Below are positions 9,723 through 41,635 of a stretch of 64,000 nucleotides of DNA, one piece after another. Within the stretch, counting starts at the first letter, position 1. Every line of letters starts with the position of its first letter. The stretch is from Gammaproteobacteria bacterium. GTDB taxonomy: Bacteria; Pseudomonadota; Gammaproteobacteria; SZUA-140. The position numbers and the translations under genes were made by a program. The notes beneath the pieces are model-generated. The model did no database searches and was not told the DNA's origin. It saw nothing but the letters and a program-made list of their open reading frames with translations. Location of the stretch: contig JADJQS010000008.1 in assembly GCA_016712635.1 (NCBI GenBank), positions 139,268 to 203,267 of the forward strand. Direction: 5' to 3'.

Positions 9723-10745
9723 ATGAAGAAACTAACTTCTCTGTCCTTGGCGCCAGCCGCGATTTTCATCAGCGGCGCTGCCATGGCGGCACCGATCGGT
9801 GGCTACGACGCGTGGACGGTTAACGCGGGTACCATCACGGCGACCTGCCCGGCGGGCCATACGTGTTCCAACCTGGATGCCACCGGCAACGGCATTCTGC
9901 AGCAAAAGATGGTGGACAACGCTGACACCACCGTTTCCTACTTCCGTACCATCGTAGTCGACGAAGGCACCACCGCGACGGACCTGGCCTCGGTACAGGC
10001 CCTGGGTTTCCGCGTTGAAGGCCAGATCGGCATCGACGGCGGCGGCGGCAACAACTACACCAACCGCAGCGTGATCAAGGGCGGCTCGATCCTGGGCAAC
10101 GACCAGATGTCGACCATGGCCGAAGTCAACAGCGGCGCCCTGCAGGCGGGCAGCCTGGCCCCTGTCGTATTGGACCAAGAGCAGGGCCTGGGCTCGACTG
10201 CCCGTCGCATGGACTGGCATTTCCATGAGAACGGCGTGCACTACCTCGAGTTGAACGCCTACTCCTCCGGCGGTGTTGCCGGCGGCGGCACGGGCAACGA
10301 GGGCGCCATCACGGTGCGTCGTTCAGGCAACCTGACCCTCGGCGGCACCCTGACGCTGGATCCGAGCATCACTGAAGGTTCCCAGACCTTGGCCTATGCG
10401 GCCGGCAACTCCGTCACGGCGGTGTGGCTGACGCAGGCGGCCTCGGGCGTCGGTTCCTTCACGAACCGGACCCTCGGTCTGCAGCGCTATACCGTGGTGA
10501 CGGGCGCAGGCGGTCCCAAGACCAACGTCGGCGGCACCTCGATCGACGCGAGCAACAGGGATGGCGCGGGTAACTTCGCGATCACCCTGAATGCCACCGG
10601 CTCCGAGATCAGCGGTACGCAGTTCGGCTGGAACAATGCCCTGTTCGGTAACACGCCCCAGGAGTACTTCACCAACTCGCTCAACAGCGCGTTGGCAGCT
10701 CCCCCGGCGCCGGGTACCTACACCAATGACTTCGTCATTCCCTAA
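9723..10745 (+). CDS. secreted Gly/Thr/Asn-rich protein, paralog A (Sec signal MKKLTSLSLAPAAIFISGAAMA)
   Basis: Good RBS (GGGAGAGAcaaATG). N-terminal conserved module W-V-N-AGTIT-C...C-LDATG-GILQQ...VSYFRTIVVDEG is shared with the downstream paralog. No recognisable family. Confidence 0.7.
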   Translation: MKKLTSLSLAPAAIFISGAAMAAPIGGYDAWTVNAGTITATCPAGHTCSNLDATGNGILQQKMVDNADTTVSYFRTIVVDEGTTATDLASVQALGFRVEGQIGIDGGGGNNYTNRSVIKGGSILGNDQMSTMAEVNSGALQAGSLAPVVLDQEQGLGSTARRMDWHFHENGVHYLELNAYSSGGVAGGGTGNEGAITVRRSGNLTLGGTLTLDPSITEGSQTLAYAAGNSVTAVWLTQAASGVGSFTNRTLGLQRYTVVTGAGGPKTNVGGTSIDASNRDGAGNFAITLNATGSEISGTQFGWNNALFGNTPQEYFTNSLNSALAAPPAPGTYTNDFVIP

Positions 10746-10769: not shown

Positions 10770-11699
10770 ATGAATCGCAAATATATAGCTTTGGCGATGG
10801 CGTCCGCGGGAGGGTTGCTGATTTCGGGTTCAGCCCTGGCGGGTTCCGCCGCAGCACACAATGCACCATTGAGCTTTGACCAGTACTCGGTCACCAACGG
10901 CACCATCACCGATACCTCGGTTGAGTGCGCCTCCACGTGGACCTGCGTGTCCCTGGATGCCACCAGCCCCGGTTTGCTGATGCAGCAGGTCACCGATCCG
11001 GGTAACGGCGTCTCCTTCATCCGCACCATCGTGGTGGAAGAGAACGCGAACGGCACGACGGCTGCGGGCCTGACGTTCTGGCAGGAAGCCCAGACGTATG
11101 CCAGCGGTGTCCTCAACAACAACATTGCCTTGACACAGGGAATTGTGGATGGCGGCATGGACTTCCGCGTCGACATTTACGAGCAGGCCTTCCGTACGGA
11201 CGGGGATATCTCCATCCCGACCAGCGGCGGCGGCGGCGCGGAGATGTACATGAACCAGACGATCGCCACGGCCGGTCAGACCTTCCAGCAGGATGGCGTG
11301 AACGGCAACGCGCGTCAGCGCATCGACCAGGTCCAGGGCACCAACCCGGGCAAGTTCACCTATGCCTCCATCGACGGCGCGGCGTTCATGCCGACCGTGG
11401 GCGGTACGCTGGGTGGCACGGTGATGCCGGCGCTGGCCTATGCCTCGACGGACGGCATCAGCGTGGTGTGGATCGGTGCGGATCAGCCGGGTAACTACGC
11501 GGCCTCGCTGCGTCAGTTCGGTTACCAGGAATTCCGCAACTGGGGTTCGATCGCGGTGACCGCTCCGGGCACCAACGTCGCGGCCGGCTCCTCGAGCTAC
11601 ATGGCGCAGGGCCCTCTGGGCCAGTTCACCGCCAACGGCTCGTGGGACTGGGATGCGGCGCTGTGGGATCTGGGCGCTGCGCCCTCCGGCCCGCCCTGA
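10770..11699 (+). CDS. secreted Gly/Thr-rich protein, paralog B (signal MNRKYIALAMASAGGLLISGSALA)
   Basis: RBS AGGAGAG. Shares YSVTNGTITDT...SLDATSPGLLMQQVTDPGNGVSFIRTIVVEE and a ...SVVWIG segment with paralog A. Confidence 0.7.
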   Translation: MNRKYIALAMASAGGLLISGSALAGSAAAHNAPLSFDQYSVTNGTITDTSVECASTWTCVSLDATSPGLLMQQVTDPGNGVSFIRTIVVEENANGTTAAGLTFWQEAQTYASGVLNNNIALTQGIVDGGMDFRVDIYEQAFRTDGDISIPTSGGGGAEMYMNQTIATAGQTFQQDGVNGNARQRIDQVQGTNPGKFTYASIDGAAFMPTVGGTLGGTVMPALAYASTDGISVVWIGADQPGNYAASLRQFGYQEFRNWGSIAVTAPGTNVAAGSSSYMAQGPLGQFTANGSWDWDAALWDLGAAPSGPP

Positions 11700-16566: not shown

Positions 16567-16684
16567 TCATTCTACTCCGCCGTTTCTTGACAGCCTATAG
16601 GTCGGGTGATAGTTTGCCAATAAAAACGAGACCTTGGCGATATCCGCCGAGCGTTTCCCAGACCTCCCGATGTGTGCGCATGGC

Positions 16685-17146
16685 ATGTTCGCAACGATGA
16701 TCAGGATTGCCGGTTTCGCCGTCCTCGCGGCGATTGGCCTGGCGGGCTGTGCCACTGCGCCGATGCAGGAGATGAGTGACGCCCGCCAGTCGGTGCAGGC
16801 CGCGCACGAGGCCGGCGCCCGCGACTACGCCTCCCACAACCTCCGCATCGCCGCCGAATACCTGGAAGAGGCCGAACGCGAACTCGAGCTGCGCTATTTC
16901 AGCCGCGCGCGGCACGACGCCGTGGTGGCCAGGAGCGAGGCGCAGAAGGCGCGCAACGTCACCCTCGCCATCCGTGAGGCCGAGGGCGAGATCGACCGAT
17001 CCGGCGCCTCAGAGGACGTGGTGCGGCAGGCCACCGACCTGCTGCTCGACGCGATGCAGGCGGCTGTCGAGGGCAAGGACAAGAAGGCCATCCGCCTCGC
17101 CGACGAGGCCAGGACCCTGCTGCAACAGCCTGCTGCCGCGCCCTGA
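16685..17146 (+). CDS. DUF4398-like lipoprotein
   Basis: Signal + lipobox (AIGLAGCATAP) and a coiled Ala/Glu-rich body. The start was chosen at the internal Met before the signal peptide. Confidence 0.6.
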   Translation: MFATMIRIAGFAVLAAIGLAGCATAPMQEMSDARQSVQAAHEAGARDYASHNLRIAAEYLEEAERELELRYFSRARHDAVVARSEAQKARNVTLAIREAEGEIDRSGASEDVVRQATDLLLDAMQAAVEGKDKKAIRLADEARTLLQQPAAAP

Positions 17147-17154
17147 TCTCGCGG

Positions 17155-17718
17155 ATGAAGCGCATCGAGCGGATCTTTGAAGGGGCGCTGTGGAACAGCC
17201 GCTACATCGTGCTGCTGGCGGTGATCTCCAGCCTGCTGGCCGGCGTCGCGATGTTCTACATGGCCACCATCGACGCCGTCTTCATGCTGGCGCACCTGGG
17301 CGACTACGCCTCGCCCGCGCTCGAGGACGACGCGCGCAGCGAGCTGCGCGGCGCCGCCATCACCCATGTGGTCGAGATCGTGGACGGTTACCTGCTGGCG
17401 ACGGTGATGCTGATCTTCGCGCTCGGCCTGTACGAGCTGTTCATCAGCAAGATCGACCAGGCGACGCACGCGGAGAATTCCTCCAACGTGCTGCTGATCG
17501 ACAGCCTGGACGACCTCAAGGCCCGCCTCGCCAAGGTGATCCTGATGATCCTCATCGTGAAGTACTTCGAGCATGCGATCGCGATGGAATTCGAGTCCCC
17601 GCTCGACCTGCTCTATCTGGCCGGCGGCATCACCCTGATCGGCCTTGCCCTGTATCTGACGCACGCCGGCGAACACAAGGACGGGGCGTCCGCGGACCGG
17701 TCCGGCGCCGCGCACTAG
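17155..17718 (+). CDS. YqhA-family (UPF0114) inner-membrane protein
   Basis: MKRIERIFEGALWNSRYIVLLAVISSLLAG... has the same architecture as E. coli YqhA. Confidence 0.8.
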   Translation: MKRIERIFEGALWNSRYIVLLAVISSLLAGVAMFYMATIDAVFMLAHLGDYASPALEDDARSELRGAAITHVVEIVDGYLLATVMLIFALGLYELFISKIDQATHAENSSNVLLIDSLDDLKARLAKVILMILIVKYFEHAIAMEFESPLDLLYLAGGITLIGLALYLTHAGEHKDGASADRSGAAH

Positions 17719-17728
17719 GCGCCGCGGC

Positions 17729-19126
17729 CTAGTCGATACGACCGTCGCGCGCCGCCTTCAGCACCAGCGCGTCGAACTCCTCCGCCGACAGCAGCCCGCG
17801 TTCCGCCACCAACTCGCGCACCGGGCGTCCGCTCTGCTCCGAGGCCTTGGCCACCTCGGCCGCAGCCGCGTAGCCGATGCGCGTATTGAGCAGCGTGGCG
17901 AGGCCGACGCTGGCGTGGAGGAATTCCCGGCAGCGCTCGCGGTCCACGCGCAATCCCTTCAGGTTGCGTTCCGTCGCGGCTCTGATCGCGTTCGTCAGCC
18001 AGTCCATCGCGTCGAACAGGGCCGAGCCCAGCGCCGGCATCATCACGTTCAGTTCGAGCTGGCCGGCCTGCGTCATCGCCGCCACCGCGGCATCCTGGCC
18101 CAGGACCTGGTAGCACACCTGGTTCAGCATCTCGAACATCACCGGATTGACCTTGCCGGGCATGATGCTCGAGCCGGGCTGCACCGCCGGCAGCACGATC
18201 TCGCCCAGGCCGGTGCGCGGGCCGGAGGCGAGCAGGCGCATGTCGTTGGCGATGCGCGTCAGCTCCAGCGCGAGGTCACGGATGGCGGAGGACAGCTGCT
18301 GCACGTCGTACATCGACTGCATCTGCGCGGCGAGGTCGGCTGCCGGGCGGATGGGCTCGCCGGTCAGGCGCGCCAGTTCGGCGGCGACGTTGGCGACATA
18401 ACCGGGCGCGGTATTGAGGCCGGTGCCGGCGGCGCTGCCCCCGAGACCGATCTCGCACAGCAGCGGGCGCACGGCCTCGATCCGGCCTGCGCAGCGGCGC
18501 AGCGTCCACGCGTAGGCGGCGAATTCGCGTCCCAGCGTGGTCGGTACCGCATCCTGCAGGTGGGTGCGGCCGCTCTTGACGGTATCTCCTTCGCGCGCCG
18601 CAATTGCAGCATATTCGTCCGCCATCGCGCGCACCGCCGCGCACAGGCGCGGCAGCTTGGCGAGCGCCGCGAGACGGATGGCGGTCGGGATGGTGTCATT
18701 GGTGCTCTGGCCCATGTTGACGTGGTCGTTGGGGTGCACCGGCCGGTATTCGCCGCGCTTGCCGCCGAGCGCGACGCTGGCCAGGTTCGCGATCACCTCG
18801 TTGCTGTTCATGTTGTGGCTGGTGCCGGCGCCGGCCTGGAAGCGGTCGACGACGAACTGGTCGATAAACTCGCCGGCCAGGATGCGGTCGGCGGCGGTGA
18901 TGATCGCCGCGGCGAGTGTGTCGTCGAGCCAGCCCGCCTGCCGGTTGGCGGCCGCCGCGGCGCGCTTGATGCGTACGTGGGCGAGCACGAAGTCGCGGTC
19001 CGGGCGCCTGCCGCTGATCGGAAAGTTGTCCACCGCACGCTGGGTCTGGATGCCGTACCAGGCGCCGTCGTGGACCCGGATCTCGCCCAGGCTGTCTTTT
19101 TCGTTGCGAAACGTGCCGCTGCTCAT
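17729..19126 (-). CDS. aspA: aspartate ammonia-lyase (class II fumarase/aspartase family)
   Basis: GSSIMPGKVNPVMFEMLNQVCYQVLG signature. C-terminal ...ERGLLSAEEFDAL and the QTQRA N-terminal motif fit AspA better than FumC. The ORF-track start at 19306 is probably an over-extension; the start is taken at MSSGTFRNEKDS. Confidence 0.8.
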   Translation of the reverse strand: MSSGTFRNEKDSLGEIRVHDGAWYGIQTQRAVDNFPISGRRPDRDFVLAHVRIKRAAAAANRQAGWLDDTLAAAIITAADRILAGEFIDQFVVDRFQAGAGTSHNMNSNEVIANLASVALGGKRGEYRPVHPNDHVNMGQSTNDTIPTAIRLAALAKLPRLCAAVRAMADEYAAIAAREGDTVKSGRTHLQDAVPTTLGREFAAYAWTLRRCAGRIEAVRPLLCEIGLGGSAAGTGLNTAPGYVANVAAELARLTGEPIRPAADLAAQMQSMYDVQQLSSAIRDLALELTRIANDMRLLASGPRTGLGEIVLPAVQPGSSIMPGKVNPVMFEMLNQVCYQVLGQDAAVAAMTQAGQLELNVMMPALGSALFDAMDWLTNAIRAATERNLKGLRVDRERCREFLHASVGLATLLNTRIGYAAAAEVAKASEQSGRPVRELVAERGLLSAEEFDALVLKAARDGRID

Positions 19127-24465: not shown

Positions 24466-27069
<2,604 letters not shown>

Positions 27070-27104
27070 ATGATAAGCTGCTTGCTATTAGATAGGGTTC
27101 TACA

Positions 27105-28763: not shown

Positions 28764-28952
28764 CCGGGAATAAATGAGGGAGAATTATTTTTTCTGCCCC
28801 GGTTATTTCCGGATAAGACATTGGCTTTATTGATTTCAAGGTGACCGCTGTGTAATTTCTTTCGCGAAAAGAGATTTTGTTCCTGCTGTCAGCCACAGGG
28901 AGGTGGCCGCCATGATGTACAGCTCTGTTGCTTCGCTTGACGTTATACGTCA

Positions 28953-29282
28953 ATGACGTATAACATGCCGTTGTTCACCTTTATCGAAACGAAACTGTTT
29001 TCACGGCTGGCAAGCGATTATCTGTCGGATGAGGAATACGCCTTGCTGCAGGGTACGCTGGCCGCGAACCCGGAGACTGGAAATCTGGTGCCGGGTTCAG
29101 GCGGTGTGCGCAAGCTGCGCTGGGCGCAGCCGGGCCGGGGCAAGCGGGGCGGGGTGCGTGTCATCTACTATGTCAGGTCGAGTGCAGGCATGATCTGGAT
29201 GCTGACGATCTACGCGAAGAACGAGGCGCAGAATATTCCTGCGCACATCCTGCGCGAGATCCGGGAGGAGATCGATGGCTAA
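28953..29282 (+). CDS. type II toxin, RelE/ParE superfamily (HigB-like, toxin-first arrangement)
   Basis: 109 aa with KLRWAQPGRGKRGGVRVIYYV...MIWMLTIYAKNE, typical of HigB-like killer proteins. It overlaps the downstream HTH antitoxin gene by 8 bp. Confidence 0.7.
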   Translation: MTYNMPLFTFIETKLFSRLASDYLSDEEYALLQGTLAANPETGNLVPGSGGVRKLRWAQPGRGKRGGVRVIYYVRSSAGMIWMLTIYAKNEAQNIPAHILREIREEIDG

Positions 29283-29547
29283 GGCGAAGCGCAACGTCGG
29301 CGTGGAGATTCTCGAAGGCATCCGCGAGATCAGGCGCGGGGAGCATGGCCGCGTCATCAACCTGCCGTCCATCGCCGCCATTCGCGAAGGCACCGGCCTG
29401 TCCCAGTCCCGCTTTGCCGAATTGCTGGGTGTTTCCGTGCGCACGCTGCAGGAATGGGAACAGGGGCGCCGGGCGCCGACCGGCGCGGCGCGCACGCTGC
29501 TGATGATCGCGCACAGGAATCCGCGCGCCTTGCTGGATGTGTCTTGA
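29275..29547 (+). CDS. HigA/NadS-like HTH antitoxin
   Basis: IREGTGLSQSRFAELLGVSVRTLQEWEQGRRAPTGAARTLLMI is an XRE-type HTH with the W-E-Q-G-R motif. Confidence 0.75.
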   Translation: MAKAKRNVGVEILEGIREIRRGEHGRVINLPSIAAIREGTGLSQSRFAELLGVSVRTLQEWEQGRRAPTGAARTLLMIAHRNPRALLDVS

Positions 29548-29705
29548 AATGAGAGCCGGACAATCGGGCAGACCACGTCTTCAGGATTCGGAAGGATGGA
29601 GAAAGTGGGTTGGTACCTTTCTCTGCCAGCGGCAGTGTGGTCCGCTCCAAGGGATCAAAAAGCCACGTTGCAAAGCGGGTCGTCAAGCATCAGAAGGACA
29701 TGCAA

Positions 29706-30162
29706 ATTGGAAATATGGATAGACGCAGATGCATGCCCGGTTGTCGTAAAGGAGATTTTATTCCGGGCGGCAGAACGGACAAAAACCAGGGTAACGCTGG
29801 TTGCAAATCAGGATATTAAAATCCCGCCTTCAAGGTATGTTACCTGCCTGCGCGTGATGCCGGGTTTTGATGTTGCCGACAATGAGATTGTTAAGAGGGT
29901 AAATGACGGCGATCTGGTCATCACAAGTGACATACCCCTGGCGGATCTGGTTTTGACTAAAGGTGGTTGTGCCTTAAGCCCGCGGGGTGAGTTATTCACC
30001 CATGAAAATATCAAATCCAGGCTTAATATAAGAGACTTTATGGATACTCTGCGCAGCAGCGGTATACGCACAGGCGGGCCATCCACCCTGAGTCAAAGCG
30101 ATCGCAAGGCGTTCGCGGACCATCTCGATAAGTGGCTTTTCAATAAGCAGATAAATCTGTAA
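29706..30162 (+). CDS. YaiI/YqgE-like DUF188 (UPF0178) family protein
   Basis: [34 protein letters not shown]...[10 protein letters not shown]...[16 protein letters not shown] closely parallels E. coli YaiI. A TTG start is inferred because the ORF-track start at 29596 adds a non-homologous leader. Confidence 0.7.
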
Positions 30163-32246: not shown

Positions 32247-32588
32247 ATGAGCACCTTGCCCAAATGTCCGCAATGCAGTTCCGAATACACCTATGAAGAC
32301 GCGGGCATGTATATCTGCCCCGAATGCGCCCATGAATGGTCGCCGCAGGCCGCGGCGGAGGCGGTGGATGAGAAGCGCGTCGTGCGCGATGCCTACGGCA
32401 ACGAACTGAAGGACGGCGACTCGGTGACGGTGATCAAGGACCTGAAGGTGAAGGGATCCTCCGCCGTGGTCAAGGTCGGCACCAAGGTGAAGAACATCCG
32501 CCTCGTCGACGGCGACCACGACATCGACTGCCGCATCGACGGCGTCGGCGCGATGGGCCTGAAGTCGGAGTTCGTGAAGAAGGCCTAG
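32247..32588 (+). CDS. phnA: PhnA/YjdC zinc-ribbon protein
   Basis: [31 protein letters not shown]...[42 protein letters not shown] is the canonical PhnA. The ORF-track N-terminal extension is ignored. Confidence 0.88.
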
Positions 32589-32605
32589 GCTCCATTTATG
32601 TGTTA

Positions 32606-32942: not shown

Positions 32943-32980
32943 GAAAAAAAAGCCCCTGCCACCGGGCGGTGACAGGGGCT
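32943..32980 (-). terminator. rho-independent terminator of cbbM (minus strand: AGCCCCTGTCACCgcccGGTGGCAGGGGCTTTTTTTT)
   Basis: GC-rich 12-bp stem followed by T8, 20 bp after the cbbM stop. This makes cbbM monocistronic. Confidence 0.8.
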
Positions 32981-33002
32981 CTGTTGCGGATGGACCCGCC
33001 GC

Positions 33003-34295
33003 CTACTTGAACTTCGCCAGCTTGTCGCGCCAGCCCGGGAAGAGCATGTCGGCGTCTTTCGGGAACGAGTAGAAGGCGCGCGCGAATTCGCGGTGCTCCT
33101 TGGCGTACTCGACCGGGTTGGCGCCGGCCTTCCAGCACTCATAGGACTGCCGCAGCGAGATGGCGCCGGCGGCCGGGCTGTCGATGTGGCCGTAGGAGCC
33201 GCCGCCGGCGGTGTTGACCAGGTTGCCGTGGCCGAGGTTCTGGAAGAAGCCCGGCAGGCGCAGCGCGTTCATGCCGCCGGAGATGATCGGCGTCGTGGGT
33301 TTCATTCCGTACCACTTCTGCAGGTACACCGGGCCGCGGCTCTCGTCGCGCTCGATCATGTAGGCAATGATCTTGTCGTCGCCTTCGCCTTCCATCTTGC
33401 CGTAGCCCATGGTGCCGACGTGGATGCCGGAGGCGCCCTGCAGACGGCTCATCTTTGCCAGTACGAACGCGGTGTAGCCGCGCTTGGACGAGGGCGAGGT
33501 GACGGCGCCGTGGCCGGCGCGGTGGTAGTGCAGGTACTGGTCGGGGTACTGGCGACGCGCTGTCGTCACCATGCCGGGGCCGCCGACATAGCCGTCCACC
33601 AGGAAGGCCAGCTTGTCCGCGTCGGAGCCGAAGGTCTCCAGCGCGAAGTCGGCGCGGGCGCACATCTCGTAGTGGTCGTCGGCCGTGATGTTGAGGGAGA
33701 ACAGCTTGGCCTCGCCGGTCTTGTCCTGCGCACGCTTCAGCGAATCGTAGACCAGCGGCAGCGTCTTCTTCAGAGGAGAGAACACCTGGTTGCCCTGCGG
33801 CTCGTCGTTCTTGATGAAGTCGCCGCCGAGCCAGAACTCGTACGCAGCCTTCGCGAAGGGCTCGGGACGCAGGCCCAGCTTGGGCTTGATGATGGTGCCG
33901 GAGATGTAACCGCCGTCCTTGATCGGGCGGCCGAGGATGCGCCACAGGTCGGAGATGTCCTTGGACGGGCCGTCGAACAGCTGGATCGCGCGCGGCGGCA
34001 CGTGGAAGTCGATCATTCTGCCGTATTCGATGTCGCCCATGCCCTGGTTGTTGCCGATGGTCAGGGTCAGGAAGGACACCATCATCATGCGGCCGTCGGT
34101 GACGTTGCGGTCGAACAGGTCCAGCGGATAGGCGATGCGCATGTCCTCGTTCTGCTCGTCGATGTAGTAGACGAGCGCGTCGACGCCCTTGGTGAAATCG
34201 TCGGTCGTGCTGACTTCCACGTTGGTGCCGGTGGACGATTCGGCGGCGAAATGCGCGGCGGCCTCCAGATAGCCATGGCCGGCCTTCGGCTTCAT
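33003..34295 (-). CDS. cbbM: ribulose-1,5-bisphosphate carboxylase/oxygenase, form II large subunit
   Basis: Near-collinear with Rhodospirillum rubrum CbbM ([28 protein letters not shown]...[14 protein letters not shown]...[13 protein letters not shown]...). The conserved N-terminus continues upstream but out of frame (see finding). Confidence 0.93.
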
Positions 34296-34659
34296 CTTGT
34301 AGGCGACCAGGATATGATTACCCTCGTTGATCAGGTCTTGTTCTTTGAGGGCAAGGTTTGCGTAACGTTTGGACTGGATCCATCTGATTCTCCCAATGAC
34401 GATAAATGACCGACAAAATGTGCGATTATAGGCGATCGGGAAAATCCAAGGAAGTCTGTATGGTTATTTATACTTACTCCAGGTCCGGATATGGCAACTG
34501 GGGTATGCGCTAGCTGATTGATTTACAACGTACTCTTCATGCAGTTCGCCCCGAGCATAGGGGATGAATGAGCCGGATTGCGGGTACGTTAGCGCCGGAC
34601 AGGGCGTGAGATGCCGACCGTGCGTACACGCTGATTCAAATCGTAAGGAGCAGTGTGAG

Positions 34660-34984
34660 CAGTCTGCCTGAATGCCCGCAGTGCAATTCCGGATACTCCT
34701 AATTAAGACTCGGGCAAATACATCTGCCCAGAATGTGCCCATGAATGTGGCCGCGGGGGGCGGTGAATGACAAGGGCGTGCGCGTGCCGCGGCAACAGCT
34801 GAAGGACGGCGACTCGGTGACAGTGATCAAGGTCCTGAAGGTGAAGGGCACGTCCACCGTGGACAAGGTCGGCACCAGGGAGAAGAACATCCGCCTCGTC
34901 GACGGCGATCACGACATCGACTGCCGCATCGACGGCATCGGCGGTATGGGCCTGATGTCGGAGTTCGTGAAGAAGGCCTGGCCG
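34660..34984 (+). pseudogene. decayed duplicate of phnA (internal stops/deletion in the 5' half; 3' 190 bp about 90% identical to intact phnA)
   Basis: Translation gives ...[95 protein letters not shown]. The nucleotide stretch was compared by eye with 32400-32588. Confidence 0.75.
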
Positions 34985-34985
34985 T

Positions 34986-35087
34986 AATATATTTGGGGTC
35001 AGAGTAAAAACCCCTTCCGGAGCTGCGTGGCTGAAGCCAGGCGCCGGGCTGGTGGGTGGCGAAGGTTTTTACTCTGACCCCAAATAT
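34986..35087. repeat. MITE-like hairpin element: perfect 24-bp terminal inverted repeats (ATATTTGGGGTCAGAGTAAAAACC ... GGTTTTTACTCTGACCCCAAATAT) around a 51-bp core
   Basis: Read directly from the sequence. It sits exactly at the junction between the phnA pseudogene and the dsrE-like gene. Confidence 0.8.
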
Positions 35088-35114: not shown

Positions 35115-35435
35115 ATGAAACTCGGCGTCATCATCGAGACGAACGAACCCGAAACGGCCTGGAACGGCGTGCGCTTCTGCAACGCAGCGCTGAAGAAGGG
35201 TCATTCCGTGAAGCTGTTCCTGATGAGCGCAGGCGTCGAGATCGAGAATATCCGGGGCGGCAAGTACGACATTGTGCTCCAGCTCGAGGAGTTCTCCGTC
35301 AACGGCGGCAAAGTGCTCGCCTGCGGCACCTGCATGAAATCGCGCAACCAGTCCGAATCGGATGTCTGCCCGACCTCGACCATGAACGACTGCGTGGAAA
35401 TGGCGGAGTGGGCGGACAAGGTAGTGACGTTCTGA
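35115..35435 (+). CDS. DsrE/DsrF-like sulfur-relay family protein (cytoplasmic)
   Basis: 106 aa. MKLGVIIETNEPETAWNGVRFCNAALKKGHSVKLFLMSAGV...ACGTCMKSR has the DsrE/TusD fold with conserved Cys. Confidence 0.75.
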   Translation: MKLGVIIETNEPETAWNGVRFCNAALKKGHSVKLFLMSAGVEIENIRGGKYDIVLQLEEFSVNGGKVLACGTCMKSRNQSESDVCPTSTMNDCVEMAEWADKVVTF

Positions 35436-36726: not shown

Positions 36727-37059
36727 GATCGGAAGGCGAGTACGGCCCGGTCAAGTTGCTGTGGCGTGGCGTGTCTCCGGTGGAGCCGGGCCAGGCAGCC
36801 GGAACAGGAATGGCAGTTGCTGCGGGCCTTCATCGGTTATTTCGACCGGCACACCGGCGAGCAGATCCAGACCGTCACCATCACAGAACTCTTATGCCGC
36901 CGTCACCCGGGGACCAGGCCGAGGTGCCCTGCGACATTATGTCGCAGGCGTACACAGACCCGGGCCGAATATACTGGCCGTGACTGTCGAGACCGGGGCC
37001 AGGCACCGTCCCCGCGTCCCGGACTTCGCTGCAATGACTCAACAAGGAAGGAGATATTC

Positions 37060-37479
37060 ATGAAACTGATTTCCCGATGGGCGCTGCTGCTCGCCCTGCT
37101 GGCCGCGGCAGCCGTTTCCCCTGTCATGGCGGGAGACACGGACCCGCTGTTCATCAATCTGACGACCGATGACCCGCACCGTGCCGAGATGGCCATCTCT
37201 TTCGGCAAGAATCAGTTCGAGCGCGGCCATCCCCTGACGATCTTCCTGAATGACAAGGGCGTGCATATCGGATCCAGGGCCGACGCCGCCAAGTTCGCCA
37301 GCCATCAGAAGGTGCTGGGAGAGCTGATCGGCAAGGGCACCGTGGTGCTGATCTGTCCCATGTGCATGAAGCATTACGGCGTGGATGAGGGCGATCTGCT
37401 GCCGGGATTGAAGGTCAGCAATCCCGAGCTCAGCGGCGCCGCGCTGTTCGAGGACGACGCCCGGACACTCACCTGGTAG
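37060..37479 (+). CDS. DsrE/DsrF-like family protein with Sec signal peptide (periplasmic)
   Basis: RBS GGAAGGAGAtattcATG. MKLISRWALLLALLAAAAVSPVMA signal. ...LTIFLNDKGVHIG...VVLICPMCMKHYG is a DsrE-like core. Confidence 0.7.
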   Translation: MKLISRWALLLALLAAAAVSPVMAGDTDPLFINLTTDDPHRAEMAISFGKNQFERGHPLTIFLNDKGVHIGSRADAAKFASHQKVLGELIGKGTVVLICPMCMKHYGVDEGDLLPGLKVSNPELSGAALFEDDARTLTW

Positions 37480-37711
37480 AGGGTGCCGGGGTCATTCCCC
37501 GGCGTGTACCGCGGGACCGGATAGTTGACCGGAGGCCTCGGTTTTTTCTGCATCACTGCCTGTCACCCGAATCGTTTTAACACCCGCCTGCGCCAGGCTC
37601 CCTGGCCTTGCCATGAGGTGGATACCTCCGGGTCCGCTGGACTATGCTTTATATGCGCCCGTCCGCGAGCGGCTTTTGTGGCGCAACTACCTGTCCAGTG
37701 GAGATCCGAGC

Positions 37712-38656
37712 ATGAAAACAACAAAGCGATTCCGGGTGGTGTTGGCAGTGCTGGTTATCGGAGCGGTATTCCTCGGCATGTCGGCCTGCGGTGGCGACGA
37801 CGACGGCCTGGGTGAAACGAATACGGAGACAAGGACCGCGACGCTGGGCAACGACATGAAAAATATCCCGCTCGTCGCGAATCAGCAGACGGAGATCAGT
37901 TTCACCTACCTGATCCCCGGGGCGATCACGTCCAAGGGCGATTACACGATCAATTTCACCGAGACGCTCAAGAACGTCTCCCTGAGTTCCGCGCCGATCG
38001 CGAAGAATACCAACAGGCTGGAGACGCTCAGGATGCTGGCCGCGGTGCTGATCAAGGACGCCTTTGCGCAGGAGGAGTCGCAGGTCACCGTGTTCGTCTC
38101 CTACCCGGACGATCCGGACGTCTGTTCCAGCCCCAATGTATTCGGGCCGTATACCATCCTCGGCGCGATCGGCACCGCGTTGACGAGCAACACCCAGACG
38201 GCCGCCCCGACGGATGCCGTGATCAATATCTCGAACCTGGGCAGTGTCGAGGTGTGCGTGGTGACCACGCCGCCCATCAACGCGTTCCTGACGGTGACGG
38301 GCGTGGCTGTCGACCTGGAGGACTGTGCCGCGCCGACTGTCACCATCGCCAACACCGACTGGTCCGGGACGTACACCTGCGACAATTTCGGCGCGGGAGA
38401 CGAAGGGGGCGACGTCGACCTGACGATCACCCGGAACCAGGACGGCAGCTATCACTACACGGACGGATCGGCGGAATACGACGGCCACCTGTGCGGGAAC
38501 AAATTCAAATTCAGCGGCGGCGTCGCCAGTTCCTACACGGAGAGCGGCACGCTGGTATTCAGCAGCAATACGGCGGCGACGAAGACCTCCACCTGGAACA
38601 GCATCCCGCCCGGATTCAGCGGCGGCAACTGTTCCGATACGCTGGAACGCCAGTAG
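37712..38656 (+). CDS. hypothetical lipoprotein (LGMSACGG lipobox), Thr/Cys-rich
   Basis: MKTTKRFRVVLAVLVIGAVFLGMSACGG, about 315 aa. No recognised domain. Confidence 0.55.
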   Translation: MKTTKRFRVVLAVLVIGAVFLGMSACGGDDDGLGETNTETRTATLGNDMKNIPLVANQQTEISFTYLIPGAITSKGDYTINFTETLKNVSLSSAPIAKNTNRLETLRMLAAVLIKDAFAQEESQVTVFVSYPDDPDVCSSPNVFGPYTILGAIGTALTSNTQTAAPTDAVINISNLGSVEVCVVTTPPINAFLTVTGVAVDLEDCAAPTVTIANTDWSGTYTCDNFGAGDEGGDVDLTITRNQDGSYHYTDGSAEYDGHLCGNKFKFSGGVASSYTESGTLVFSSNTAATKTSTWNSIPPGFSGGNCSDTLERQ

Positions 38657-40345: not shown

Positions 40346-40684
40346 CCCCTCGGTGTGTTGTTATGGTGGCGACCGGCTGCTCTCACGGCGTCCGGGTAAA
40401 GGTCCGGAGTATAACCTCTGGCGGCGGCACGGCCCTATCCCCCTCAGGCGGCGCTCCCCGGCCCATTAGTTGACCGGAACTGTAAGGTATTCGGCCGGCG
40501 CCTGACGGGTCAGGCGCGGCAGCATCGACTTCGGGCGGTTTCTGCGCCCAGGTTTTAATTGCCAATCCGGGGCGGGGTCTGGGCTGGCGGCTCCGGAGGG
40601 TGCGAATCCGATATAATCGGGAGTCCCGGCGGGTCGCGTTTCCGGTCGATCCCCGGGTTCCCAAGTGAAACTGTCGGAGCGGGG

Positions 40685-41152
40685 ATGGATTTGAACGAAG
40701 TGTTTCCCAGCGGTTACCTGCACTATCTGGCGGGCGGACTGCTGATCGGCGGCGGGACGGCCCTGTTGTTCATCGGCGCCGGACTGATCGGCGGCATGAG
40801 CGGCATTTACTCGTCGGTCTGGTCCTGGTTTTCGCGCGCGCCCCATTTCCAGCAGGAGCGCATCCGGGGCAGCCGCGACTGGCGGCTGGTCTACTCGATC
40901 GGGCTGATCCTGGGGGCATTCCTCTGGCTCATTACCGGCGGTACGGCCTGGAGCACGGGCATCGGCGCGTGGCAACTGCTGCTCGGCGGGTTCGTCGCCG
41001 GATTCGGCGCGCGGCTCTCGAACGGCTGTACCTCCGGCCATGGCATCTGCGGTGTGGCCGCGCTGCAGCCGCCGTCCCTGCTGGCGGTGATCATCTTCAT
41101 GGCGACCGCGATCGCGACCGCGAACATTATGCGCGCGATGGGTGGCGCATGA
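40685..41152 (+). CDS. YeeE/YedE-family (DUF395) sulfur-compound transporter, half 1
   Basis: ...GGFVAGFGARLSNGCTSGHGICG matches the YeeE/YedE conserved Cys motif. Translationally coupled to half 2 (ATGA overlap). Confidence 0.75.
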   Translation: MDLNEVFPSGYLHYLAGGLLIGGGTALLFIGAGLIGGMSGIYSSVWSWFSRAPHFQQERIRGSRDWRLVYSIGLILGAFLWLITGGTAWSTGIGAWQLLLGGFVAGFGARLSNGCTSGHGICGVAALQPPSLLAVIIFMATAIATANIMRAMGGA

Positions 41153-41610
41153 GCGGGGGATGCACAAACCTGAAGTCCTATGGTTGCCTGTTCGTGCTCG
41201 CCGGCGGCCTGATGGCGGGTTATGGGCTCAGCCTGTCGGGCATGGTGCGGCCCGAGGTCGTGCTGAGTTTTCTGCGCTTCGAGGATATGGGATTGCTATT
41301 GGTGCTGGCCGGGGCCTCCGGGACGGCGTTGCTGGCCTATCAGGTGGCGCCGCGCGTCATGCGCCAGCCGCTGGCCGCCCCGGTCTTCAGCGTATACTCA
41401 TCGGTACTGAACGGGCGCACGCTCGGCGGCGCGGCCATCTTCGGCGTCGGCTGGGGCATCTGCGGCGTATGCCCGGGGCCCGCGATGGCCGGTCTCGGTG
41501 CGGGCGACGGGTCCCTGCTGTTCTCGCTGCTGGGCATGCTGGCGGGCGCCTATGTGCAGGGCCGCTATTTCGGCGAGGTGCCGCTGGAGGCTGCGCGAAA
41601 CCGGAGTTGA
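41149..41610 (+). CDS. YeeE/YedE-family (DUF395) sulfur-compound transporter, half 2
   Basis: MSGGCTNLKSYGC... and ...FGVGWGICGVCPGP. Paired two-gene arrangement. Confidence 0.75.
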   Translation: MSGGCTNLKSYGCLFVLAGGLMAGYGLSLSGMVRPEVVLSFLRFEDMGLLLVLAGASGTALLAYQVAPRVMRQPLAAPVFSVYSSVLNGRTLGGAAIFGVGWGICGVCPGPAMAGLGAGDGSLLFSLLGMLAGAYVQGRYFGEVPLEAARNRS

Positions 41611-41635
41611 ACAGCTGACGGGCGCGGAGGTAAAT

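Follow-up and report, generated by a model that had tools for sequence, protein, structure and literature searches.

The closest described counterparts of the gene discussed here are the form II RuBisCO large chains (CbbM) of Gallionella (PDB 5C2C/5C2G) and Rhodospirillum rubrum (5RUB/9RUB). The window, by which the whole analysed stretch of 64,000 nucleotides is meant, carries a cbbM gene whose product is like them over its full length, in its domains and in its motifs, but in which, in the deposited sequence, a shift of frame separates the first two codons from all that follow. Other known systems resemble the locus in part. Young frameshift pseudogenes of accessory genes share with it a single lesion in an intact, strain-variable gene, which can be deleted by way of flanking repeats; they differ in that the window cbbM has neither a second lesion nor relaxed selection, and its lesion is known from this assembly alone. 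The residual indels of R9-era Nanopore assemblies are similar as well, since the window lesion is a one-base change of length in a short C run within an otherwise perfect gene; here, however, the run goes only from 1 to 2 bases, no second case is present in the 64 kb, and the classic Nanopore signature, consisting of many errors in long homopolymers, is absent locally in the window. Frameshifting of the prfB/RF2 type, finally, is comparable because an early +1 shift would restore the conserved protein, while the window site lacks a slippery codon, an in-frame stop or rare codon, a Shine-Dalgarno-like stimulator at 3-nt spacing, and conservation.

The elements at the 5' end of the gene, and the reading frame which follows them, are the following.

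34381–34383, minus strand: ancestral cbbM start ATG, conserved in the close relatives L081, L083, L084 and L091; it now heads a 21-codon out-of-frame ORF
34376–34377, minus strand: site of the lesion, with CC (GATCCAG) in place of the single C found in all relatives (GATCAG); the surplus base, one of these two, corresponds to the single gapped column of a five-way alignment
34296–34376, minus strand: ancestral CbbM codons 3–29, in frame with the remaining gene, without a canonical start, identical to database protein P0001
33003–34295, minus strand: remaining cbbM ORF, from the internal Met30 to the stop codon, 430 aa, with the form II RuBisCO large-chain domains

Read from the window sequence, the minus strand from 34383 to 34371 is ATGGATCCAGTCC; starting slightly upstream, from 34394 to 34371, the 5' end of the gene is GGGAGA-atcag-ATG GAT CCA GTC C... 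Codons 3–459 (34376–33003) are not read in the frame of the ATG at 34383, from which an ORF of 21 residues extends to a TAA at 34320–34318. An earlier note on this DNA had placed one extra base after codon 2, and it was correct: the minus strand reads ATG GAT C[C]AG TCC. The same note had described the frame upstream of the 430-aa ORF as open but devoid of a start codon, and the ATG at 34381–34383 as lying in a different frame. Both descriptions are borne out: upstream of 34295 the N-terminal extension contains no stop codon and no ATG, GTG or TTG, while the frame of the ATG is closed by the TAA just mentioned.

All 27 of the upstream codons agree with the N-terminus of the family, and each of 81 more distant orthologs, from a set of 80 species-representative genomes retrieved with the repaired protein (counts cover the recovered 5' ends), begins with either MDQSxRY or MA(H/L)DQS; because of this double agreement, the match of the upstream frame is not due to chance. 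When one C of 34377–34376 is deleted in silico, a 1380-nt ORF is obtained, encoding 459 aa from MDQSKRY... to a terminal AKFK. As the note had proposed, removal of one C brings back the conserved N-terminus, and the repaired product is identical over its full length to P0001. In the deposited sequence the frame that begins at the conserved MDQS start is broken; the removal of a single base makes it intact.

The public annotation deals with the lesion in a different manner. The note had set the annotated start at MKPKAG: this holds for the 430-aa ORF, which does start at 34295, and fails for the public record, which starts at an upstream ATC.

34386–34388, minus strand: ATC taken as the start in GenBank, giving a product of 461 aa, MRWIQSKRY... 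(MBK8163767.1, here P0002)

The protein MBK8163767.1 is numbered between the PhnA and DsrE proteins. Its ATC (34388–34386) directly abuts the Shine-Dalgarno sequence and, for this reason, is regarded as an annotation work-around and not as a credible start. The NCBI pipeline avoided a pseudogene call by starting the coding sequence at an in-frame ATC, which accounts for the artificial N-terminus MRWI.

The gene was compared with four independent contigs from close relatives, with 94–99% DNA identity and an upstream region in common with the window.

L081, Logan SRR31776074: 99% DNA identity over 2.47 kb
L083, ENA ERZ795105: 94% DNA identity
L084, Logan SRR12009705: 94% DNA identity
L091, CAUJHU01, GCA_963204755.1: 95% DNA identity in cbbM

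All four carry ATGGATCAGTCC, with a single C, and the alignment of the five 5' regions, window included, contains exactly one gapped column. The extra base is present in none of the 4 contigs and in none of the 81 orthologs; an alignment with orthologous cbbM 5' regions, which the note had suggested, thus finds it absent from all relatives compared. At the protein level, the database contains, besides P0001, relatives at 99%, 97% and 94%, and all of these begin with MDQSKRY. In the positional index, which does not include this MAG, exact look-ups of the 430-aa ORF, P0002, ClpB and TerC gave no match. The MRWIQ form makes up a singleton protein cluster, and when the first 130 aa of the truncated ORF were used to look for fragments starting with MKPKAG, nothing identical was returned, the best match being at 92%. 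The extra C is therefore unique to this contig. Scans of metagenome DNA with both alleles of the cbbM 5' end gave 0 matches for either, and are uninformative. Codon 2 is GAC in 26 of the 81 orthologs and in none of the close relatives; one may conjecture that GATCCAG is a consensus merge of GAT-CAG and GAC-CAG alleles.

Apart from the extra base, cbbM is intact and shows no decay. Signals for its expression, and for the end of its transcription, are found at the expected places.

34389–34394, minus strand: Shine-Dalgarno sequence GGGAGA, separated from the downstream ATG at 34383 by five bases and unchanged in close relatives
34425–34430, minus strand: TATAAT, a perfect -10-like box within the conserved CCTATAAT motif of the cbbM upstream region; promoter predicted from conservation only
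32949–32982, minus strand: strong intrinsic terminator located 20 nt past the cbbM stop codon, with a stem of 15 bp and a T run after it

The CCTATAAT box, the 5'-UTR, the Shine-Dalgarno sequence and the ATG are all conserved in the five-way alignment, the gapped column excepted; a consensus scan found no -35 matching the TATAAT box. Substitutions in the repaired ORF are overwhelmingly synonymous. With respect to L081, 12 synonymous and 0 nonsynonymous differences are counted; with respect to L083/L084 the counts are 46 and 5 (pN/pS 0.033), and the 29 N-terminal codons contribute to them 2 synonymous changes and 0 nonsynonymous ones. Neither relaxed selection nor further lesions in cbbM were found in the substitution counts against L081 and L083 or in the expression signals.

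Domains PF02788 and PF00016 are found in P0001/P0002. Over its entire length the repaired product can be aligned with 5C2C (residues 1–457, E=1.3e-275), and also with the form II structures 6IUS, 4LF1, 9RUB and 5RUB. The lysine of IIKPKLG and the motif of the carbamylated lysine are present in the window ORF and invariant in an alignment of 31 sequences; HRAGHG is likewise among the invariant motifs of the family contained in the repaired product. The catalytic roles of these active-site motifs are presumably those of the R. rubrum enzyme. Judged by its sequence, this is a form II RuBisCO gene of the ordinary kind, and it looks functional.

As to its origin, the extra C is probably a residual consensus or polishing error, of the kind left in a low-coverage, strain-heterogeneous, Nanopore-based MAG. 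The real organism would then read ATG GAT CAG TCC..., encoding a 459-aa MDQSKRY... protein identical to P0001. Exact look-ups of the window proteins ClpB, MarC, PhnA, DsrE, TerC, FadL and HrpB lead to MBK8163756, 764, 766, 768, 769, 774 and 777, respectively, and the series MBK8163756–777 lies entirely on one 212,746-bp contig labelled "MAG: Gammaproteobacteria bacterium". MBK numbers lower and higher than those of this block are assigned to JADJAS01 and JADJWH01, and both JADJAS and JADJWH are entries of Supplementary Data 3 of Singleton et al. 2021 (PMC8012365). L092 (JADJWH), in the same source, is assigned to o__SZUA-140, Thioalkalispiraceae in MiDAS. From its position in the accession block, and from its taxonomy, the MAG of the window appears to belong to the same Nanopore series. 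The pipeline as described in PMC8012365 starts from a CANU assembly of Nanopore reads, which is then polished with Racon, twice with medaka and once more with Racon, this time using Illumina reads. In sampled rows of its table, coverage is about 6–70x for Illumina and about 9–44x for Nanopore (mostly near 10–25x or below), with 0.2–7% polymorphic sites; the row for JADJQS, a candidate source by its taxonomy and, besides JADJWH, the only SZUA-140 MAG in the part of the table covered, gives Illumina 11.5x, Nanopore 13.2x, a strain heterogeneity of 40 and 2.3% polymorphic sites.

A base rate for such errors can be appreciated from several assemblies of one Rhodocyclaceae species, which have identical CbbM. 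When L087 (JADKHB01), a contig from a sister MAG, is compared with L085 and L086, 7 indel events are found against only 4–10 substitutions, over 14.9 kb.

L087, sites 883, 8784, 8935, 11535–11541 and 14884: indels relative to L085 and L086

They are single-base changes in short runs of G or C (GGGG to GGG, CCC to CC, CCC to CCCC), along with a scrambled patch in cbbQ. L086, a 3.2-Mb contig from another assembly, differs from L085 and L088 by a 1-bp insertion of its own at 18383, and GAPDH is called in it with a length of 288 aa, as against 332 aa in the others. At the indels of L087 and L086, calls for a hydrolase, an IS1595 transposase, cbbQ, PRK and GAPDH are either shortened or missing. No indels are seen among L088, L089 and L090, which are from the same species. 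Lesions of the window type are, demonstrably, present in sister assemblies.

Some features of the window speak against an artefact. The lesion does not fall in a long homopolymer; comparisons with L091, over about 10 kb, and with L093, over about 14 kb of genes, reveal no further uncompensated coding indel, the remaining ones being either multiples of three or locally compensated; and about 45 window genes cover the whole length of their Pfam profiles. The local error rate is thus low, and one real mutation is therefore not much less likely than one error. Other candidates for broken genes in the window did not stand. What was suspected to be a second split gene, at 16613–17718, consists of a DUF4398 gene and an unrelated UPF0114 gene, and the half-length Sulf_transp match at 40559–41152 is part of a two-gene YeeE/YedE arrangement, which is also present in L091, L092 and L093. 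On balance, the evidence tilts towards an assembly error, because the extra C is absent in the four relatives and the MAG apparently comes from a low-coverage Nanopore series with residual indels.

The genomic setting of cbbM bears mostly on the opposite reading, that of a genuine mutation. The gene is enclosed between two copies of phnA.

32247–32588, plus strand: phnA/yjdM, intact, 113 aa (MBK8163766.1); contains one flanking direct repeat (32293–32602)
34632–34995, plus strand: phnA pseudogene; contains the second flanking direct repeat (34702–34995); its TAATTAAG lesion is common to L081

The direct repeats are 85–89% identical, lie about 2.4 kb apart and flank cbbM on both sides. L081 independently spans pseudo-phnA, cbbM and phnA, and the phnA-cbbM-phnA architecture is for this reason to be regarded as real. 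Collinear sequences with 90–96% identity, L093 and L094, feature the order DUF188-MarC-ORF138-PhnA-DsrE-TerC and contain no cbbM; their single phnA aligns to both copies of the window. The syntenic relative L092 also has a single phnA and no cbbM, while in L091 and L083/L084 a single intact phnA is found beside cbbM, with differing downstream neighbours. As far as gene content indicates, cbbM is a strain-variable cassette in the clade; it looks as if it had been either gained by Campbell-type integration through phnA, or lost by loop-out between the repeats. Among the Pfam-annotated ORFs of the 64 kb there is no cbbQ, cbbO, PRK, LysR-type regulator (cbbR) or other Calvin-cycle gene. The window cbbM stands alone, in contrast to the loci of L082 and L085, where cbbQ, cbbO, PRK and others adjoin it; full cbb clusters hold closely related cbbM genes in L082 and in L085–L089.

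Within the phnA pseudogene, a patch of 50 bp (34748–34797) is scrambled: in a comparison with L081 (the 99% strain), L091, L093 and the intact phnA of the window itself, 16 nt are missing in 4–6 events, and the flanks are identical. The patch is located about 370 nt upstream of the cbbM lesion, and resembles the patch seen in L087, which would agree with an error at the lesion. It may be explained either by additional decay of the pseudogene or by local garbling of the consensus.

A genuine inactivation is plausible in this setting, because cbbM is stand-alone, strain-variable, flanked by phnA repeats and absent from related genomes. The C may have been duplicated after codon 2 very recently, in the dominant strain, which would leave a null or strongly hypomorphic allele; this is possible, and we hold it to be distinctly less probable than an error. 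Ribosomes would start at the ATG at 34383 and make a peptide of 21 residues, up to the TAA at 34320–34318. Re-initiation at the ATG at 34295, 22 nt downstream of the TAA, would yield a trickle of truncated RuBisCO at most, and its product would be devoid of residues 1–29 and perhaps of part of a beta-strand, as a predicted model hints. Such an allele would be the first step of cbbM loss in a lineage where the gene is an accessory cassette. Consistent with it, the base does stand in the deposited consensus, in a window which otherwise appears well polished, and polymorphic sites are reported for the source MAG series (0.2–7% in the sampled rows of PMC8012365). The isolation of cbbM, unlike the L082 and L085 loci with their cbb neighbours, goes in the same direction, as does its absence from L092, L093 and L094: together with the flanking phnA repeats, this absence indicates that cbbM is dispensable and prone to deletion. 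Against a real lesion, the 0 nonsynonymous versus 12 synonymous differences from L081, with expression signals intact, imply that any inactivation must be extremely young. The lesion, moreover, is in no second assembly, as seen from the 430-aa product not being on record, the MRWIQ singleton and the lack of identical fragments; and exactly such errors are shown by the assembly technology and by the sister MAG. Were the base real, it would show a sulfur-oxidiser lineage of activated sludge just beginning to lose a cbbM cassette that is dispensable and flanked by repeats; this would be mildly interesting for population genomics, with no new biology.

It is much harder to accept that the extra base is real and that near-native RuBisCO is nevertheless rescued, either by initiation at the in-frame ATC at 34379–34377 or by a +1 shift at GAT-CCA-G; we consider this highly improbable. 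The product of the first route would be (M)QSKRY..., which has one residue fewer than the native protein. The ATC at 34379 is at a workable distance, 10 nt after the GGAG core of the Shine-Dalgarno sequence, and the lack of decay in cbbM would agree with a protein still being made. ATC, on the other hand, initiates in bacteria at roughly 0.1–1% of the efficiency of ATG, and a strong ATG merely 4 nt upstream would out-compete it. The second route would require a shift at a site which is conserved in no relative, so that nothing about it is "programmed". GAT-CCA-G allows no slippery re-pairing, since pairing is impossible both for GAU to AUC and for CCA to CAG, and CC is far too short for transcriptional slippage. 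In prfB a slow codon or a stop codon is located at the shift site; here the next 0-frame stop is 19 codons away. A programmed frameshift was accordingly rejected, given an unconserved site, no +1 re-pairing at GAU-CCA-G and no pause codon. If rescue were true, the choice of start codon would throttle the expression of a stand-alone cbbM cassette.

The option, raised in the earlier note, that translation naturally begins at the internal Met30 (ATG 34295), with the upstream similarity as a relic, can be discarded: this codon is the first canonical in-frame start, and its Met is invariant in the family, but the N-terminus lies about 29 residues further upstream in every ortholog and in every solved form II structure, the 29 upstream codons change only synonymously among close relatives, no Shine-Dalgarno sequence precedes 34295, and a start at this point would cut one beta-strand, at residues 23–32 (predicted model, pLDDT 71–87 in its N-terminal part). 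The AlphaFold model was built on a shallow alignment of 31 sequences and is poor (mean pLDDT 54.9); its assignment of the N-terminal strand alone was used, with caution.

With a residual assembly error as the favoured origin, the main value of the observation is that of a data-quality note: the nr protein MBK8163767.1 has MRWI in place of MD, and needs to be repaired or flagged when autotrophy is inferred from the MAG, or when RuBisCOs are aligned. Whether artefact or knock-out, the lesion is a trivial one in an ordinary gene of a known kind, and does not represent new biology.

A few additional features of the window and its relatives may be reported. Sulfur-related genes are found near cbbM: two DsrE-like genes, at 35115–35435 and 36766–37479, and a YeeE/YedE pair at 40559–41618. 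From clpB to dsrE (27–35.5 kb), the window is a variable region, whose content differs in L083/L084, L091, L092 and L093. Here a RelE-like toxin and an HTH/MqsA-like antitoxin form a pair, adjoining a DUF188 gene of low GC content (0.47–0.49); the coordinates are 28941–29547 and 29596–30162. In L093 (825–3617), and in L094 too, clpB appears to be interrupted: a 629-aa clpB call is followed by a DUF433/DUF5615 toxin-antitoxin-like pair and by a 61-aa ClpB_D2-small fragment, the latter duplicating window 26880–27070. Finally, some plus-strand ORFs have coding-like GC3 and match no Pfam family. Two of them, of 340 and 309 aa, are adjacent and in the same frame (9723–10745 and 10770–11699); another, of 347 aa, is located at 37613–38656 and is conserved in L093 and L095 (315-aa call).
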